From NCBI GenBank assembly GCA_964577205.1, contig CAZNYG010000002.1, forward strand, positions 3,757 through 66,422: a DNA stretch of 62,666 nucleotides, written 5' to 3'. Source of the DNA: an uncultured Elusimicrobiales bacterium. Lineage in GTDB: Bacteria; Elusimicrobiota; Endomicrobiia; Endomicrobiales; CAIRNS01. The translations under genes and the position numbers were made by a program. Shown piece after piece: positions 50,993 through 57,620 of the stretch. Each line of letters begins with the position of its first letter. The first letter of the stretch is position 1. Under the pieces are notes generated by a model, which saw only the letters and a program-made list of their open reading frames with translations, did no database searches and was not told the origin of the DNA.

Positions 50993-52843
50993 ATGGAAAG
51001 ATCTATCGCAGGAGCGGAAGCGGTCCGGTGGGACCTTGCCGCGCTGTATGCCGGGATCGATGATCCCAGGATCGACGAAGACCGGGACCGGCTGACGGAG
51101 AAGCTCAGTGATTTCAACAGGTCGTTCAAGGGAAAGCTTGCTGAAGCGCCCGGGCAGGCGGTCGCGGCGTACGCCGACATCCGCATGCTCGAGGACAAGA
51201 TCATGCTGTACCTGTATCTTCTGTTGAGCACGAATGTCGCCGAAGCGTCCGTGAAGGCGAAAATAGCCGAAACGGAACGCATGCTGAGCGGCGCCTTCGG
51301 CGAGTATATGTCTTTTTTCAAGATCGAAATGGCCGCGATAGACGATAAAACGCTCGAACGCTGGTACAGGGATGATCCCGTCGTCGCCCGCCACCGTCCC
51401 TGGATCGAGCATGAACGCGTGTTCAAACCGCATCTGCTCAGCGAAGCCGTCGAGTCTGCGCTCATCAAACGCTCGCCTTTCGGGCCGTCGGCGTGGAGTG
51501 AATTTTTCGACGAACTGGAAGCCGATATCGAAGCGGAATACCTTGGGGAGAAAAAAACGCTGACGGAACTCCTGCACCTGCTGGCCGAATCAGGGGATGC
51601 CGGAGAAAGGGCCGCGGTGCTGCGCATTATCGACGACAGCCTGAAGGGCGCGTTCGCCAGGTATTCCGCCCAGGCCCTGTACATGGTGGCCGGTTCGGCC
51701 TCGGTCGAGAACCGCGAACGTTCCTACCGGAACCCGATGGACGCGCGGAACAAGTCCAACCGCATCCCCGACGAAGTGGTCGACGTGCTCCATCAGGTGA
51801 TCGTAGACGCCGCGGGCCCGGTCGCCCGGCGGTATTACCGCCTCAAGGCCGCTCATCTCGGGATGAAGACGCTGAAGTGGAGCGACCGCAACGCGCCGAT
51901 GCCGTTCGCCGACACGGCGGTCATCCCCTTCGAAGAGGCGCGGGAGACCGTCATCGCGGCGTACCGGAGTTTCAGTCCGGAGCTCGCCCGGCTGGCGCAA
52001 AGTTTCTTTGACGAAAAACGCGTCGACGCTCCCGCGCTGAAGGGGAAACGGAGCGGCGCCTTCAATTATTCCGTCGTGCTTCCGGGGAACGCGCCGATAT
52101 CCTTTGTGTTCATGAACTATCTCGGTTCGAACCGGGATGTCATGACGCTGGCGCACGAGCTGGGCCACGGGGTCCACGGCCTGCTCGCGGGCGGGGCGCG
52201 GGGCGCGCTGATGGCGCAGGCTCCCATAGCGTATGCCGAAACCGCTTCGGTATTCGGAGAAATGACGACGTTCAGGTTCCTGCGGGAACGGCTGGAGAAG
52301 AAGAACGACCGGCAGTCGCGGCTCGCGCTGCTTATGGGTAAGATAGACGATGTGCTGAACACGCTGGTGCGCCAGATCAGCTTTTCCCTTTTCGAGCGCC
52401 GGCTGCACGGGTTCGACGAGGCGGAAAATACCTGGAAGCCCCCGGAAAAAATGCCGGTCGCCGGCATCAACCGGCTCTGGCTCGAGTCTACGAAACAGCT
52501 CTACGGCGACGACGGCGACGTGTTCACGTATGAGAACGCCGATCATCTCTGGTCATATATATCGCATTTTCACAGCCCGTTCTACGTTTATGGATACGCG
52601 TTCGGCGAACTGCTGACGCAAAGCCTGTACGCTCAGCGCTCCCGCGTCGGCGAACGTTTCGAACCGCTCTACATCGATCTGCTGAGCTCCGGCTCGACGA
52701 AGAACGTGTTCGAGCTGCTCAAACCGTTCGATCTTGATCCGGGCGACAGAGGTTTCTGGTCTTACGGGATCGACAACGGCCTCGGCGCGCTCGTCGCTGA
52801 AGCGGAAGATCTTTCGCGGGACGCGGGCGTCCGTGTCAAATGA
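50993..52843 (+). CDS. pepF: Oligoendopeptidase F family (M3B)
   Basis: Zinc motif HELGHGVH with a downstream ETASVFGE glutamate. Length is about 615 aa. Confidence 0.9.
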   Translation: MERSIAGAEAVRWDLAALYAGIDDPRIDEDRDRLTEKLSDFNRSFKGKLAEAPGQAVAAYADIRMLEDKIMLYLYLLLSTNVAEASVKAKIAETERMLSGAFGEYMSFFKIEMAAIDDKTLERWYRDDPVVARHRPWIEHERVFKPHLLSEAVESALIKRSPFGPSAWSEFFDELEADIEAEYLGEKKTLTELLHLLAESGDAGERAAVLRIIDDSLKGAFARYSAQALYMVAGSASVENRERSYRNPMDARNKSNRIPDEVVDVLHQVIVDAAGPVARRYYRLKAAHLGMKTLKWSDRNAPMPFADTAVIPFEEARETVIAAYRSFSPELARLAQSFFDEKRVDAPALKGKRSGAFNYSVVLPGNAPISFVFMNYLGSNRDVMTLAHELGHGVHGLLAGGARGALMAQAPIAYAETASVFGEMTTFRFLRERLEKKNDRQSRLALLMGKIDDVLNTLVRQISFSLFERRLHGFDEAENTWKPPEKMPVAGINRLWLESTKQLYGDDGDVFTYENADHLWSYISHFHSPFYVYGYAFGELLTQSLYAQRSRVGERFEPLYIDLLSSGSTKNVFELLKPFDLDPGDRGFWSYGIDNGLGALVAEAEDLSRDAGVRVK

Positions 52844-53933
52844 CCCGTTGCGCCTCCGCCGCTTTCATGAGGGTTTCCGTCTCTCTGCGGATGATGTCGG
52901 ATTCGTCCAGCGCGTTGATGTAGAAATGCCTTTGTGAACGGGCCGAGGTGATCCGCAGGACGTCCCTGCCGCTGTTCCACGGCATTTCGTCGAGATTGAT
53001 GCCGAGGAATGCCATGTCTTTCGCCAGCTGATAGATGATCTGGTTGAGATGGCCAGCGTAACAGCCGGCGAAAACGATCGCGCCGAGTCCGCGCAGCAGA
53101 GACATGTAATCTCCGATATATTTGAGGATTTGATTACGGTACACGTCGAACGCGAGGGTCACCGCCTCGTCCTTCCCGTACAGTGTGGCCAGTTCGTTCA
53201 GCGGGAGATCGAATCCCGTCATGCCGAGAAAACCGCTTTTTTTCTTCAGCAGTTCGTCGATCTTGTACATCGAGTATCCCTGCTCCTTCATCAGATAGAC
53301 TATGATGCCCGGATCGATGTCCCCGCAGCTTTTCGCGGACATGATGCCCTCCAGCGGCGTGTAGCCCAGGCTGACCGCCACGGGCTTTCCTTTGGCGATA
53401 GCGCAGACCGTCGTCTGCCGGTCCAGCACCACTGAAATGATCTTCTCTTCGCCGGGAAACAGCTTCGCGTGTTCACCGTGGAATATCCCGTGGTATCCCT
53501 GTTTGACGACACTGCTGTCCCGGTAATAGGTATGCGCCAGGGGATAGAGCGTCTCGCTCGCCGGAAGCCCTGAAAAGAACGATGTCTCGAAGAAGGCGAA
53601 CTGGGGGATGTCCTTCAGGGTTTCGACGAACAGGCCGAGGACAGCGCAGGCCGAAGGTATATACAGGGGAAAATCTCCCGCGCGCCGCGCGAGAGCGGCG
53701 ATGAATTGATCCGTCACGCGGGCCGGTTCCCCGCCGGCGTCGCCGCCGAAATGCAGATGGAATGAACACGCCTCCACCGGTTCGTCGCCCGCGAGGCGGC
53801 GGATGATGTCGCGGAGTTGTCCGGCGCGGCTGCCGGCATGGCGGTCGGCCCTCCATTCGTGTGTCGAGACGCTCCGCGCGCCGAAAGCTCTGAACGATAT
53901 TTTTCCTGGTAATGGTTCGACGACAATTATCAT
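52836..53933 (-). CDS. Divergent acetate/propionate-kinase-family paralog with substituted catalytic motifs
   Basis: Clearly alignable to the adjacent AckA (GYHGIFH, SLGYTPLEGIMSAKSCGDID, SGFLGMTG). However, the phosphate-1 motif is VVEPLPGKISF instead of VINCGSSSLKY, and HLGSGGS is replaced by VLDRQTT. ATGA overlap with the ackA stop. Confidence 0.7.
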   Translation of the reverse strand: MIIVVEPLPGKISFRAFGARSVSTHEWRADRHAGSRAGQLRDIIRRLAGDEPVEACSFHLHFGGDAGGEPARVTDQFIAALARRAGDFPLYIPSACAVLGLFVETLKDIPQFAFFETSFFSGLPASETLYPLAHTYYRDSSVVKQGYHGIFHGEHAKLFPGEEKIISVVLDRQTTVCAIAKGKPVAVSLGYTPLEGIMSAKSCGDIDPGIIVYLMKEQGYSMYKIDELLKKKSGFLGMTGFDLPLNELATLYGKDEAVTLAFDVYRNQILKYIGDYMSLLRGLGAIVFAGCYAGHLNQIIYQLAKDMAFLGINLDEMPWNSGRDVLRITSARSQRHFYINALDESDIIRRETETLMKAAEAQRVI

Positions 53934-55162
53934 TGCTGTGCACCTCGGTAAGAAACCGCGTTGTAGGATTCGCGGGCTATCATGATCTCCTCGTTAGTCG
54001 GGACCGCGAGGACCCTTGTTTCCGAACCGGCGCCGGTGATGTCGGCGTTCCGGTACGCGGAAGTGCGGTTCTTTTTTCCATCAAGGGCGATGCCGAAGCA
54101 TTCAAGCCCCTCGCAGGCGCTCAGCCGCACCTCGGGCAGTTCGATGCCCAGAGTGTCGGTGAACACCAGAATATCGGCTTTTTTAAGCAGCAGCGAATAA
54201 TAGCCGATATACTTCCTGACCCTGCGCACGTACATGTCGAAAGTGACGCGCGCTTTCGGGTCGGTATCCCTGTGGCGGGCGACGTCCCTCATATCCGACG
54301 ACGTGCTGAACACGCCTAGGATGCCGCTTTTGAAGTTGAGCATTCTCTCGGCGTCTTCCGGCGAAAGATTGTTCTTTGCCATGACCTGGAAGAGCACGCC
54401 GATGTCGAGGTCGCCGCAGCGGGTGTTCATCATTAGCCCTTCAAGCGGGGTGTACCCCATGGAGTTGTTGATCGAAACGCCGTTCCTGATAGCGCAGACG
54501 CTCGAACCTCCGCTGCCCAGATGGCAGCTGATGATCTTCTGCGTGGCGGGGTCCCTTCCGAGGAACCTGCACGCTTCCTGGGCGATGTACTGATGCGATA
54601 TGCCGTGAAAACCGATCTTTTTGAGATGGTGCTGCCTGACCAGCTTGCCCGGCAGGGCGTACGCGGCGTACTCCGCGGGGATCGTGCTGTGGAAAGCTGT
54701 GTCGAACACCGCGTACTGGGGGATATCCCTGTATTCCCGTGCGCACGTTTCTATGAGGTCGAGGGAAACCTTGTTGTGTATCGGAGCGAGGCTGACGGTT
54801 TTTTTCAACCTGGCGATCGCGCGCTGGTCGATCCTGACGGTGCGCTTGAACGACGGCCCCGGATGAACGTACCGGTGCGCGAAACAGTCACAGGCCGGGC
54901 AGTCCCCGTTCTTCGATCCTTCGTTCAGCAGGGCAATGACTTCCCGGAACGCGGCCGCGTGGTCGGGAAGGGGCACGGTGACCTTTCGTTCCTTTCCTCC
55001 CGCGGAGTGCAGGATGGCGGACGGTTCGCTGCCGAGCATGCCGACGCGCACCGCTTCGCCGCGGGCGCATTCCTCTTCGCCGGGCATCCGGATGACGCGG
55101 TATTTCAGCGACGAGCTGCCGCAGTTGATGACAAGGATGGCGGCGCCGCGTTCAGATCTCAT
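53930..55162 (-). CDS. ackA: Acetate kinase
   Basis: ILVINCGSSSLKY, VFDTAFH, GFHGISHQY, HLGSGGSSVCA, TPLEGLMMNTRCGDLD and PTNEE. Confidence 0.93.
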   Translation of the reverse strand: MRSERGAAILVINCGSSSLKYRVIRMPGEEECARGEAVRVGMLGSEPSAILHSAGGKERKVTVPLPDHAAAFREVIALLNEGSKNGDCPACDCFAHRYVHPGPSFKRTVRIDQRAIARLKKTVSLAPIHNKVSLDLIETCAREYRDIPQYAVFDTAFHSTIPAEYAAYALPGKLVRQHHLKKIGFHGISHQYIAQEACRFLGRDPATQKIISCHLGSGGSSVCAIRNGVSINNSMGYTPLEGLMMNTRCGDLDIGVLFQVMAKNNLSPEDAERMLNFKSGILGVFSTSSDMRDVARHRDTDPKARVTFDMYVRRVRKYIGYYSLLLKKADILVFTDTLGIELPEVRLSACEGLECFGIALDGKKNRTSAYRNADITGAGSETRVLAVPTNEEIMIARESYNAVSYRGAQQ

Positions 55163-56357
55163 CGGAGGACCACCCGAACGTCGGTACGCCGATATTCCTG
55201 TGGAGCATCATCGCCTGCCCGTACACCGCTTTTTTGACCGTCTCGAAACCGGAGGCCTCGGTGGCGGATTCCATCGAAGGGCCGAACCCGAATGTCGGGA
55301 TGCCGAGCTCGCCGAACGTGTAGGAGCCTTCGGTCATTGTGTTCTTCCAGTACCCGGTGCCGGGGGTAAATCCGTTGTCGGTCAACGCCTGCAGGGACCG
55401 CAAAACGAACGGATGGCTGGGTTCCATCGACCACGGTTTGATCTCTTTCTCTGAGACGACATTCGTCCCGGCGATCGTCTTGATGTTCTCCCGGGCCACG
55501 GCGGTCTCCACCAGGACGCTCTGTTCTCCACGGTAGACCGACTGCGCGATCATTTTCGCGCGTTCGAGTATGTTCTCCTGCTGTTCCTCCGGCACGAACG
55601 TCCTGTCTACGATCACTTTGAACTCGTTCTCTTTGTCCAGAGGCTGCGTCCCGCAGAAATGGACGTCCTTGATCTTCAGGCTGGAGCCGCCCATGGAATT
55701 ATTCAGCGGAAGATTGCGGGAAAGGTTTTCCAGCTCGTGGATGAGAGGGAACATGGTGCCCAGGATATTGATGCCGCGGCTTTCAACGAAACCGTTGCCC
55801 AGCCGCACTTTTACGACGATCTCGTATTCCATCCTGCCTTTGTGCCCGAGATAGACGTTCATGTCCGTGGGTTCGCACAGGATGATGCCTTTCAGCCGAT
55901 TGACGCGCTTCCTGAGATAATAATCGAAGAGGTATTTGATCCCGAAGCCGCAGCATCCCGAGCGGGGCACGCCGCATACCAGCACGTCGCCTACCAGCGG
56001 AAGGAGCGTCCTTTTCAGGACGGCGGCGGAATAGAGCGCGGAGATGATCCCCTGGTCGTAGCTGCCGATGCTGTTGCCGTACGGGGCCGTTTCGCCGGGT
56101 TTTCTTCCCTGGGCGTAGTCCAGGTGGAACACGAGGGCGATATCCTGCTCCTGCCGGTAACCGTTCATCGTCCCGACGATGTTGTCGAAGCGGTCGGTCT
56201 CGGAGGAATCGAAATCGAGGGATCTCATCTCGTCGAGGATCAGCCCGTTGAACTGCCCGGCGTCGCCGCCGTCCGTTTTGCATTCTTTGAGTTTTTTCCC
56301 GAACTGCTTCATCGGTTCGCTCAGGCCTTCAAGTTTACTCTGAATAAGCTGCTGCAT
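55152..56357 (-). CDS. M20 (ArgE/DapE/CPG2)-like protein with non-canonical metal/catalytic positions
   Basis: The order FHLDYA ... GSYDQG ... CEPTD ... GHKG resembles M20 peptidases. Where the DEE motif is expected, the sequence reads VPRSGCCGFG. The start at 56357 has AGGAGG 5 nt upstream; the ORF track extends to 56450. Confidence 0.6.
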   Translation of the reverse strand: MQQLIQSKLEGLSEPMKQFGKKLKECKTDGGDAGQFNGLILDEMRSLDFDSSETDRFDNIVGTMNGYRQEQDIALVFHLDYAQGRKPGETAPYGNSIGSYDQGIISALYSAAVLKRTLLPLVGDVLVCGVPRSGCCGFGIKYLFDYYLRKRVNRLKGIILCEPTDMNVYLGHKGRMEYEIVVKVRLGNGFVESRGINILGTMFPLIHELENLSRNLPLNNSMGGSSLKIKDVHFCGTQPLDKENEFKVIVDRTFVPEEQQENILERAKMIAQSVYRGEQSVLVETAVARENIKTIAGTNVVSEKEIKPWSMEPSHPFVLRSLQALTDNGFTPGTGYWKNTMTEGSYTFGELGIPTFGFGPSMESATEASGFETVKKAVYGQAMMLHRNIGVPTFGWSSDEI

Positions 56358-56422
56358 ACATGCCTCCTGTGTAGTATAGATTAACAATGTGAAATATTTG
56401 TAAACACCAATGGCAAATTTTT

Positions 56423-56974
56423 TTAGAACGTAGGGGGGGTGACCACCCATATCGCTTCGCTTTCCTCCTTGCCTGTATTCTTAAATGAATGGGGAGTGCT
56501 GGCGTTGAAGTAGATGCTGTCGCCCTTTTTCAGGACGTATACCGCGTCGTTGAGCGTCACTTCGAGCGTTCCTTTGATGACCAGGATGAACTCCTGGCCG
56601 AAATGTTTGTACATGTTCTCGCCGGAAGCCGCTTTCGGATTGAGCTTGAAAAGCAGGGGTTCCATCTGTTTGTTCGGTTCAGGCGTCGTCAGCAGGTAAA
56701 GGTTGATGCCGTTGCCGATCTCGTCAAGGTGTTTCCGTTCTTCGACGCGCATGACCGGCGATCCCGACCCGGCCTGGTTTTCACCGATCAGATTGCCGAC
56801 CGTGGATGAAAGGCTGTTGGCGATATTCTTCAGCGTTTCCAGCGACGGCTGCGCCTTTCCCGTTTCGATCTGCGAGAGAAAGCTCGGGCTGATATTCACG
56901 CTTTTGGCCAGCGTACGCAGGGTTATTCTCTTTTCCTCGCGCAGCCGTTTGATGTTGACCCCAATGATCTTCAT
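56423..56974 (-). CDS. XRE-family HTH transcriptional regulator with C-terminal cupin domain
   Basis: HTH region ITLRTLAKSVNISPSFLSQIETGK and cupin beta-barrel region EFILVIKGTLEVTL ... GDSIYFNASTPHSF. The start is chosen at MKIIGVNIKRLREE. Confidence 0.85.
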   Translation of the reverse strand: MKIIGVNIKRLREEKRITLRTLAKSVNISPSFLSQIETGKAQPSLETLKNIANSLSSTVGNLIGENQAGSGSPVMRVEERKHLDEIGNGINLYLLTTPEPNKQMEPLLFKLNPKAASGENMYKHFGQEFILVIKGTLEVTLNDAVYVLKKGDSIYFNASTPHSFKNTGKEESEAIWVVTPPTF

Positions 56975-57090
56975 GGCATAAGTATATCCTGAAATCGGCC
57001 AAAAGTCAAGTGGTATCAAACAAAAATAAGTATATGTAAACACATAAACTGCTAAAAAAATCAAATAATTCCACTTTTTATCGGGATGCC

Positions 57091-57128: not shown

Positions 57129-57620
57129 ATGACGGTATTCGTGCTGATCCCCGCTTTGCTGCAATTCCTGAAACTTCACGTCTTTACCGTCATCCTCAAC
57201 CATTTCGTCAATATCCCTCTCTCCATCATTTTCGGTTTCGGCAAGTACGCGGCTTTTGTAATAGCGCTGATCATGGACATTGTGCAGATCGTTGTTTACT
57301 TCAACGTGCTGAACAAGACGTCGATCGGCAAACGGTTCGGCTGGATCGTGGACGACAAGATGATCAAGGAGTACCGTGAGCCCGAATTCGTCGTCCGCAT
57401 GCAGAATAAGGGGATGTACTACTGGGCGGTCATGTCCCTTTCGCTACTGCCGGTGTATTTCGGAGGGATATTCGTCGCCGTGTTCACTTCGCACATGCTG
57501 AAACTGGATAAAAGAAAGAGCGCGATATACATCTTCATCGGAAGCCTTATCGGCTGCTTTATCTGGACCATCGGCATCTGGAACCTCGTCGAACTGGTGA
57601 TCACTTCGTTCAGGCGCTGA
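57129..57620 (+). CDS. Small polytopic membrane protein, function unknown
   Basis: Four hydrophobic helices, for example AAFVIALIMDIVQIVVYFNVL and YWAVMSLSLLPVYFGGIFVAVF. No motif recognised. Confidence 0.5.
   Translation: MTVFVLIPALLQFLKLHVFTVILNHFVNIPLSIIFGFGKYAAFVIALIMDIVQIVVYFNVLNKTSIGKRFGWIVDDKMIKEYREPEFVVRMQNKGMYYWAVMSLSLLPVYFGGIFVAVFTSHMLKLDKRKSAIYIFIGSLIGCFIWTIGIWNLVELVITSFRR

Follow-up and report, generated by a model that had tools for sequence, protein, structure and literature searches.

To our knowledge, the Entamoeba acetate kinase EhACK is the sole characterised acetate kinase that depends on inorganic phosphate (Pi) and pyrophosphate (PPi). Here we describe a four-gene operon encoding a bacterial relative of that enzyme, located in a 62,666-nucleotide (nt) stretch (the window) from an uncultured Elusimicrobiales bacterium (assembly GCA_964577205.1, contig CAZNYG010000002.1, positions 3,757 to 66,422 of the forward strand). 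In order of transcription, its four successive minus-strand open reading frames (ORFs) encode an XRE-family helix-turn-helix and cupin regulator (XRE-cupin), an M20-like protein related to YgeY, an accessory acetate kinase of the Entamoeba type (A2) and a catalytically degenerate acetate kinase paralog (PA). EhACK is recognised by an extra Gly that lengthens the PHOSPHATE2 motif, Thr in place of Asn211, Ser in place of Gly239, an Asp before a non-Gly residue at 331, and Glu in place of Asn335 (PMC5517563 and PMC4390882; Ingram-Smith and colleagues). By 2017, the extended PHOSPHATE2 loop had been seen only in Entamoeba and four Anaerolineaceae (PMC5517563), and both the physiological role of EhACK and its source of acetyl phosphate are unsettled (PMC9983610). 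Searches of the literature on acetate kinase pseudokinases, paralogs and heterodimers, on YgeY and on PPi-dependent acetate kinase turned up neither the cassette nor a dead AckA paralog; the EhACK-type kinase was known before, and its three-protein context is previously undescribed.

To establish how widely the module occurs, a genome collection was scanned, and 53 loci with a PA-type gene were recovered. The order xre, m20, A2, PA is identical in about 45 of these, i.e. in all with enough upstream sequence, and most of the others are cut by contig ends. Carriers belong to at least six phyla and include Endomicrobiales/Elusimicrobia, many Omnitrophota, Firestonebacteria, Raymondbacteria, Fibrobacteres, Marinamargulisbacteria, Brevinematales and Bacteroidota, the last with a cultured isolate, Geofilum sp. 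OHC36d9. The module is thus kept across many phyla of uncultured anaerobic bacteria. Across these phyla, identity ranges from 37 to 73% for PA and from 34 to 82% for the M20-like protein, and at 90% identity there are at least 120 A2 clusters and at least 134 M20-like clusters. In the window, the M20-like gene and A2 overlap by 11 nt, with the M20-like stop at 55152, and A2 and PA overlap by 4 nt (ATGA); the M20-like/A2 overlap of 11 nt recurs in 27 of 35 loci, and in 36 of 45 the A2/PA overlap is either 17 or 4 nt. An earlier sequence-only reading of the window had proposed the minus-strand operon and these overlaps, and had made its case depend on the genes being kept intact in relatives; the ORF listing and the conserved order and overlaps bear out the first point, and the roughly 45 loci in at least six phyla the second.

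Flanking genes are unrelated from locus to locus. When the flanking ORFs of about 50 loci were clustered, nothing besides the four genes recurred, Hyf/Nuo-like membrane subunits being found downstream in only about six loci. Within its own phylum the module is patchy: 151 genomes gave two strong and two weak matches, and one genome of the same family lacks it. Because order, overlaps and operators are kept while flanks differ, because occurrence is patchy and because a canonical AckA is also present, the operon is best regarded as a self-contained accessory cassette that was probably transferred horizontally. Three candidate observations were discarded along the way. An apparent lone A2 without PA (G155:C33) was a different, non-EhACK-type Ack-like protein and hence no counter-example; apparent in-frame stops in homologs, which together with the YgeY link had raised selenocysteine, were artefacts of ORF extension beyond gene ends; and a PADLOC scan of the four proteins for a defence system gave generic helix-turn-helix matches only, and hence no support.

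For residue mapping of the kinases, 16 ordinary AckAs, 46 A2 and 51 PA sequences were aligned to M. thermophila AckA, with numbering checked against PDB 1g99. A2 (53930-55162, minus strand, 410 amino acids) scored 347.6 against PF00871 (cut-off 22) and 350.9 against TIGR00016 (cut-off 293.4), and fell under the cut-off of all species-level equivalog models. It retains N7, S10, S12, K14, R91, H123, D148, H180, H208, R241, D283, R285 and E384, together with an intact acyl pocket (V93/I122/F179/P232, with Ile at L122). The residues N7, S10, S12, K14, R91, H123, D148, H180, R241 and E384 and the acyl pocket are present in the window A2 and in at least 44 of the 46 family members. Judged by alignment, A2 alone in the module possesses a complete catalytic set. 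It has the fold, the catalytic residues and the acetate pocket of the canonical ATP-dependent AckA, TdcD and PduW enzymes (1G99, 2IIR) and belongs to the same dimeric family, but deviates from them at N211, G239, A330, G331, E334 and N335 and in loop length.

These deviations are family-wide and fall in the nucleotide site. They comprise G95P, N211T/S with a one-residue Gly insertion and G239N, followed in the ADENOSINE region by A330D, G331S/T, E334V/I/T and N335G/E. Among the 46 members, 37 have Thr at position 211, 8 have Ser (the window A2 among them) and 1 has Ala; Asp330 and a Ser or Thr at 331 are present in all 46, and at position 335 there are 30 with Gly and 10 with Glu. The window A2 itself carries A330D, G331T, I332L and N335E, so that FTDTLGIE replaces the FTAGIGEN of the M. 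thermophila enzyme; the corresponding EhACK core is FTDQMGLE, and the wider ADENOSINE motifs read FTDTLGIELPEVR in A2 and FTDQMGLEVWQVR in EhACK. PHOSPHATE2 is HLGSGGSS in the window A2, HLGTGGSS in EhACK and HLGN-GSS in the M. thermophila enzyme, and LOOP3 is MNTRCGD in A2 and MSTRCGD in EhACK. Like EhACK (PDB 4H0O, EC 2.7.2.12), A2 therefore has the second PHOSPHATE2 Gly, Thr or Ser at 211, residues other than Gly at 239 and 331, Asp330, Leu or Met at 332 and Glu335, with all catalytic residues retained. Residues 205-361 of A2 gave EhACK (4h0o) as top PDB match, with identical loop lengths. The two enzymes differ in that EhACK has STLAG where A2 has TPLEG and Gln at 331 where A2 has Thr or Ser, and in that EhACK is the product of a stand-alone eukaryotic gene, whereas A2 always lies between an M20-like gene and a dead paralog. 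The putative non-ATP acetate kinases of the Anaerolineaceae Ornatilinea, Longilinea, Flexilinea and Leptolinea share the extra PHOSPHATE2 Gly and Asp330 with A2 but have Asp at 331, and no dead paralog or M20 context was reported for them (PMC5517563).

A maximum likelihood (ML) tree (LG+C20, 78 sequences, including 28 canonical AckAs) placed EhACK, A2 and the A2-type kinases of more distant loci (A2b, described below) in one clade with support of 100/99, separate from the 28 canonical enzymes. On alignment and phylogeny, A2 belongs to the EhACK (Pi/PPi-type) clade, with a nucleotide site and ancestry of the EhACK type. The sequence-only reading had called it a canonical kinase, and this no longer holds, the canonical gene being elsewhere in the genome. 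Of three PF00871 genes, the best match (532 bits) lies on contig C67; it is an ordinary housekeeping ackA, and A2 is an extra copy. A canonical AckA scoring higher than A2 was found in all 15 carriers checked (the window genome and 14 others), and two of the 14 others hold two A2-PA pairs each besides it (G154, contigs C25 and C4; G160, contigs C38 and C92). The window genome also encodes an H+-translocating pyrophosphatase (H+-PPase) and pyruvate phosphate dikinase (PPDK).

The housekeeping ackA of the window genome (G000, C67:7582-10176) has only a weak PTA_PTB match (25.9 bits) about 900 nt downstream; the genome is 96% complete and yielded no strong Pta. In seven of the other carriers (G153, G156-G159, G163 and G164), the best canonical AckA match spans only about positions 1-347 of the 392 in the profile, in ORFs of 364-403 amino acids; these carriers may have a C-terminally divergent housekeeping AckA.

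Taken with the clade assignment, the EhACK-type residues of A2 tip the balance slightly towards an enzyme that converts acetyl phosphate and Pi into acetate and PPi. Several points weigh against this assignment of the reaction. The sister link between EhACK and A2 within their clade is weak (84/61), and by whole-profile score A2 matches the T. maritima and M. thermophila enzymes better than EhACK. Position 331 is Thr or Ser rather than the Gln of EhACK, and position 335 is Gly in most A2 members. EhACK residues introduced into ATP-dependent kinases reduced ATP use and gave no PPi use, and the donor of the bacterial look-alikes (PPi, ATP or other) was left open (PMC5517563).

The same open donor leaves room for an A2 that goes on using nucleotides as an acetate/propionate kinase, with an altered nucleoside triphosphate preference or a lowered affinity. 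The module would then be a regulated second Ack serving one specific growth condition, with PA and the M20-like protein as its regulators. All phosphoryl-transfer residues are retained in A2, as is R285, which stacks on the adenine in the M. thermophila enzyme, and substitutions of G331 and N211 in that enzyme lower ATP use but do not abolish it (PMC4390882). We nevertheless consider a nucleotide-dependent A2 unlikely. Five independent EhACK-type changes, among them the very rare PHOSPHATE2 Gly and Asp330, co-occur and are invariant or nearly so in the family; the clade is shared with EhACK, and the host already possesses a canonical AckA.

The last gene of the operon, PA (52836-53933, minus strand, 365 amino acids), scored 157 bits against PF00871 over profile positions 91-386 only and 147 against TIGR00016 (cut-off 293). 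In a MAFFT alignment with M. thermophila AckA (1g99), the window PA carries N7E, S10P, S12K, R91H, H123Y, D148E, H152F, H208V, G210D, N211R, G212Q and R241S, so the motif substitutions that had been read by eye hold. Across the 51 family members the losses are N7 (Asp/Glu), S10, S12, H123 (Tyr), D148 (Glu), H152 (Phe), H208 (Val), G210 (Asp), N211 (Lys/Arg), G212 (Gln), R241 (Ser) and E384 (Leu/Val/Ile); the MAFFT alignment gives Glu in the E384 column for the window protein, whereas the family residue is Leu, Val or Ile. Canonical AckA thus stands apart from PA, which is without nearly all catalytic residues, and in the host it is the product of a separate gene. The replacements are themselves conserved, with Glu148 in 46, Phe152 in 51, Tyr123 in 48, Asp210 in 49 and Thr214 in 51 of the 51 sequences, and the alignment holds 28 invariant and 54 near-invariant columns. 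An AlphaFold2 model of PA (mean predicted local distance difference test score, pLDDT, 87) reproduces the two-domain AckA fold in full, N-terminal sheet included, with template modelling (TM) scores of 0.68-0.77 to solved AckAs. The family is discrete, with about 85 clusters (about 31 at 50% identity) scoring at least 220 bits against at most 150 for ordinary AckA. No fusion of PA with A2 or M20 was seen among the best 150 PA-profile matches in a library of 1.84 billion proteins, and the long proteins among them (538-799 amino acids) match over a single domain, with canonical residues in all but one.

Because the replacements are conserved and a complete fold is modelled, PA is best read as a remodelled pseudo-kinase and no decaying gene. 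From its residues it is predicted to be unable to transfer phosphate, and new conserved residues are fixed in its former active-site cleft. The sequence-only reading had offered PA either as a pseudo-enzyme partner or as an enzyme of new substrate specificity. The former is now the most plausible, because catalytic and phosphate-binding residues are lost and yet purifying selection is strong; the latter is unsupported because the Mg2+ and phosphate ligands are missing.

Degenerate acetate kinase paralogs appear to be broader than the PA family, since further library matches (P0377-P0494) form lineages of short AckA-like proteins (about 345-375 amino acids) with Glu148, Phe152 and Cys208 and without E384. 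A different, atypical Ack-like protein, not of the EhACK type, is encoded directly downstream of an AMP-dependent synthetase/ligase gene at another locus (L085, 5324-6538, minus strand); its FEPSFH carries D148E, the H90-R91 pair is missing, and the FTGGIGEH motif is canonical.

The second gene encodes the M20-like protein (55152-56357, minus strand, 401 amino acids from the likely start). A scan for the M20 family (PF01546) gave no Pfam match, and scores against the YgeY models NF009555 (131.7) and TIGR03526 (107.5) lie far under the cut-off of 321. Searched against the PDB, the window sequence alone gave no match and the family profile a weak DapE match only. With hhalign, the protein aligns end to end with E. 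coli YgeY (probability 99.7), and its AlphaFold2 model (pLDDT 84.6) shows the two-domain M20 fold, with the M20 enzymes 5k8m, 7uoi and 7ljh as top Foldseek matches (E = 1e-20, TM 0.66-0.72). It shares with YgeY and the ArgE/DapE deacylases the two-domain fold, the HxD motif and the EPT motif, and with YgeY the Cys of EEDCDG, but has lost the bridging Asp, the general base and the terminal His.

In the window protein, HxD is retained with both its His and its Asp, as is the Glu of EPT; there is no bridging Asp, no final His and neither Glu of the EE pair. Among 139 family members, 121 have the HxD His, which is replaced by Asn or Pro in about 12%, and 138 have the EPT Glu, whereas the bridging Asp, the general-base Glu and the terminal His are present in none. 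The bridging Asp is replaced mostly by Lys, Gly or Arg (Lys or Arg in 59), and the adjacent ligand Glu is found in 99, being absent in 29% and Gly in the window. The Arg of a PR motif directly before the lost general base is invariant in a 36-sequence alignment. From these residues, a canonical dinuclear hydrolase site should be impossible. The ligand table and hhalign agree with the initial remark that the expected DEE metal and general-base residues were missing. Thiol-based chemistry, suggested at the same time, has no specific support, because one Cys of the window CC pair aligns with the Cys of EEDCDG in E. coli YgeY and neighbouring positions vary in the family. The last eight residues, FGWSSDEI, are highly conserved and modelled as disordered, as is typical of docking tails; E. 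coli YgeY does not have this module-specific C-terminal GW(S/T)xD(E/D)I tail.

Could PA and the M20-like protein be decaying pseudogenes beside a working kinase? The catalytic motifs are gone in both, and one truncated PA-type gene (L056, 7001-7705, residues 123-357 only) stands alone on a contig of 512 kb, with none of xre, M20 and A2 upstream, and is apparently the relic of a decayed cassette. In the module itself, both proteins are full-length and without stop codons, identity is kept over at least six phyla with dozens of invariant columns, fold predictions are confident for both, and the translational coupling is conserved. Decay is effectively refuted by these conservation data, and we give it almost no probability.

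Three distant versions of the module retain an intact M20 protein. The first, in a Spirochaetes metagenome-assembled genome (L074), encodes the M20 protein, an A2-type kinase (A2b) and a PA-type paralog (PAb); the second (L082) encodes the same three proteins and adjoins a sigma-54 V4R activator; and the third (L083) encodes the M20 protein, a divergent Pta-like acyltransferase, A2b and PAb. In all three, the M20 protein keeps the full ligand set together with the EE pair and the terminal His, and the L074 and L082 proteins reach up to 218 bits against YgeY models (cut-off 321). The M20 proteins of these loci have the C-terminal tail GW(T/S)xD(D/E)(I/V), as in the window family, and the kinases carry HLGSGG and FTDTIGE. 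As the distant loci share a kinase and a dead paralog, that pair would be the old core of the module, and the Pta-like gene ties it to acetyl-phosphate metabolism. By this comparison, only the window clade appears to have lost the M20 metal site and recruited XRE-cupin.

These loci give some weight to the idea that an N-acylated or N-carbamoylated compound is broken down by the three proteins in a short, YgeW/YgeY/YqeA-like pathway, in which the M20-like protein would go on cleaving or binding its substrate by an altered chemistry (mono-metal, Arg- or Cys-assisted, or even phosphorolytic) and PA would have a new enzymatic or channelling role. Besides the intact YgeY-like M20 proteins and the one Pta-like acyltransferase, such a pathway would fit the change of lost acidic ligands to basic or invariant residues (the invariant Arg; Lys or Arg at the bridging Asp in 59 of 139), which could form an anion or phosphate site, and the association of a ligand-sensing cupin or V4R regulator with the module. 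A conserved catalytic M20 metal site is nevertheless argued against, because ligand positions vary inside the family, both at the HxD His and at the ligand Glu that the window itself lacks. PA is without Mg2+ and phosphate ligands, and the flanks of about 50 loci contain no consistently linked transporter or extra catabolic gene. A pathway of this kind is, in our judgment, distinctly unlikely.

XRE-cupin is encoded by the first gene of the operon (56423-56974, minus strand, 183 amino acids). The longest ORFs are too long at the 5' end for this gene and for the M20-like gene, which remain open to 57064 and 56450, respectively. Homologs are 183 amino acids (XRE, beginning MKI(I/V)GVNIKR) and about 405 amino acids (M20-like) long, and an AGGAGG lies 5 nt upstream of the M20-like ATG at 56357; on these grounds the real starts were placed at 56974 (XRE) and 56357 (M20-like), the former agreeing with the gene end at 56974 originally given. 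XRE-cupin contains an N-terminal HTH_3 domain (47.8 bits) and a C-terminal Cupin_2 domain (68.2 bits), both over gathering thresholds. Its score against the PuuR equivalog model (68.5, cut-off 211) indicates a PuuR-like protein that is not PuuR itself.

A sigma-70-type operon promoter could be read directly from the sequence (56981-57009, minus strand), with the -35 element TTGACT at 57009-57004, a 17-nt spacer and the -10 element TATACT at 56986-56981, ending 6 nt before the XRE ATG. For comparison of promoters and operators, 28 loci could be anchored on CTTGAC from the 31 with enough upstream sequence. The arrangement ACTTGACAA-17-TAtacT occurs at the same position in these 28 loci, 27 of which are from other genomes. 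Their operator consensus is tgTTAAgt..t..TTaA, about 16 nt, TGTTAA.TaATACTTGACAA, 17 nt, TAtacT, the second repeat overlapping the -35 element. The window copy, which has diverged from this consensus, consists of two operator-like repeats, TGTGTTTACATATACTTAT and TTGTTTGATACCACTTGAC, at 57006-57045 (minus strand), to which we infer that the regulator binds. Repression of its own promoter from these two operators, one overlapping the -35 element, would be released by a small ligand in the cupin domain; XRE-cupin is probably such a ligand-released autorepressor. Upstream of xre in Geofilum sp. OHC36d9 (L049), the TGTTAA/TTGACA architecture is replaced by a perfect inverted repeat, AATTCAGTATTCATTA...TAATGAATACTGAATT, with a Bacteroidetes-type -7 box, and the operator appears to have been re-invented together with the host promoter type.

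Two genes border the operon. On the plus strand and convergent with it lies a gene for an M3-family oligoendopeptidase, PepF (50993-52843; TIGR02290 451 bits, cut-off 562), whose 3' end shares 8 nt with the PA stop region, leaving no space for an intervening terminator. Divergent from the XRE gene, at 57129-57620 (plus strand), is a gene for a small polytopic membrane protein (PF06695, Sm_multidrug_ex, 37 bits), which is probably outside the module because it is unlinked to the cassette in other genomes.

The identity of XRE-cupin across phyla, 52-74%, is unusual for a local regulator and would be in keeping with a device for sensing or signalling acetyl phosphate or acetate, in which the pseudoenzymes act as receptors and XRE-cupin joins the same complex. 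Two of its three partners are pseudoenzymes, and the module is accessory. On the other hand, A2 keeps its full catalytic apparatus under strong selection, and no output domain or target genes are linked, which makes a signalling role very unlikely.

The model we favour, with about even confidence, is a ligand-derepressed accessory module in which A2 is the sole catalyst and the two pseudoenzymes are its obligate partners. Once XRE-cupin repression had been released, A2 would catalyse acetyl phosphate + Pi <-> acetate + PPi in place of ADP/ATP use, and the PPi produced would feed a PPi economy, the genome encoding H+-PPase and PPDK. PA would be an obligate non-catalytic partner of A2, either in a prozyme-like heterodimer that replaces the AckA homodimer or as an allosteric or ligand-binding subunit. 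The M20-like protein would be a subunit that binds or scaffolds without hydrolysing and that may dock by its C-terminal GW(S/T)xD(E/D)I tail. That both are physical, non-catalytic partners of A2 is a proposition for which the chances seem evenly divided. We know of no prozyme-like acetate kinase heterodimer in the AckA family. The nearest parallel is in trypanosomatid AdoMetDC and deoxyhypusine synthase, where a dead paralog is the obligate partner of an active or impaired enzyme (PMC5201418, PMC3663545); the families are unrelated, and heteromers have been shown for the trypanosomatid systems but are only inferred for A2 and PA.

Three considerations speak against this model. PA is a deep, long-branch lineage outside the EhACK/A2 clade in the ML tree and no recent duplicate of A2. 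Most M20-like members may keep a residual mono-metal site, formed by the His, the EPT Glu and, in 99 of 139, the ligand Glu. EhACK is active as a homodimer and requires no partner, so PA is unnecessary for Pi/PPi chemistry as such.

A more far-reaching idea joins A2, PA and the M20-like protein in a single enzyme, an obligate hetero-oligomer. Its remodelled dead sites, a basic anion site in the M20-like protein and a PA cleft refilled with conserved aromatic and acidic residues, would bind or generate an acyl phosphate, possibly by phosphorolytic cleavage of an acylated metabolite. We regard this as a long shot. If true, energy would be conserved directly as PPi, and the module would supply the missing acetyl-phosphate-making partner of the Entamoeba acetate kinase.

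The module offers three testable ideas, on the donor specificity of A2, on a prozyme-like acetate kinase heterodimer and on the route from an M20 hydrolase to a metal-less subunit, and the cultured Geofilum sp. OHC36d9 makes experiments feasible. In databases, A2 and PA go under the names 'acetate/propionate family kinase', 'acetate kinase' and 'hypothetical protein', and such annotation could mislead metabolic reconstructions of Omnitrophota and Elusimicrobiota. For the acetate kinase family, the finding places a large bacterial clade around EhACK, with a fixed context of a dead paralog, a YgeY-like M20 protein and sometimes Pta, in organisms with H+-PPase and PPDK.

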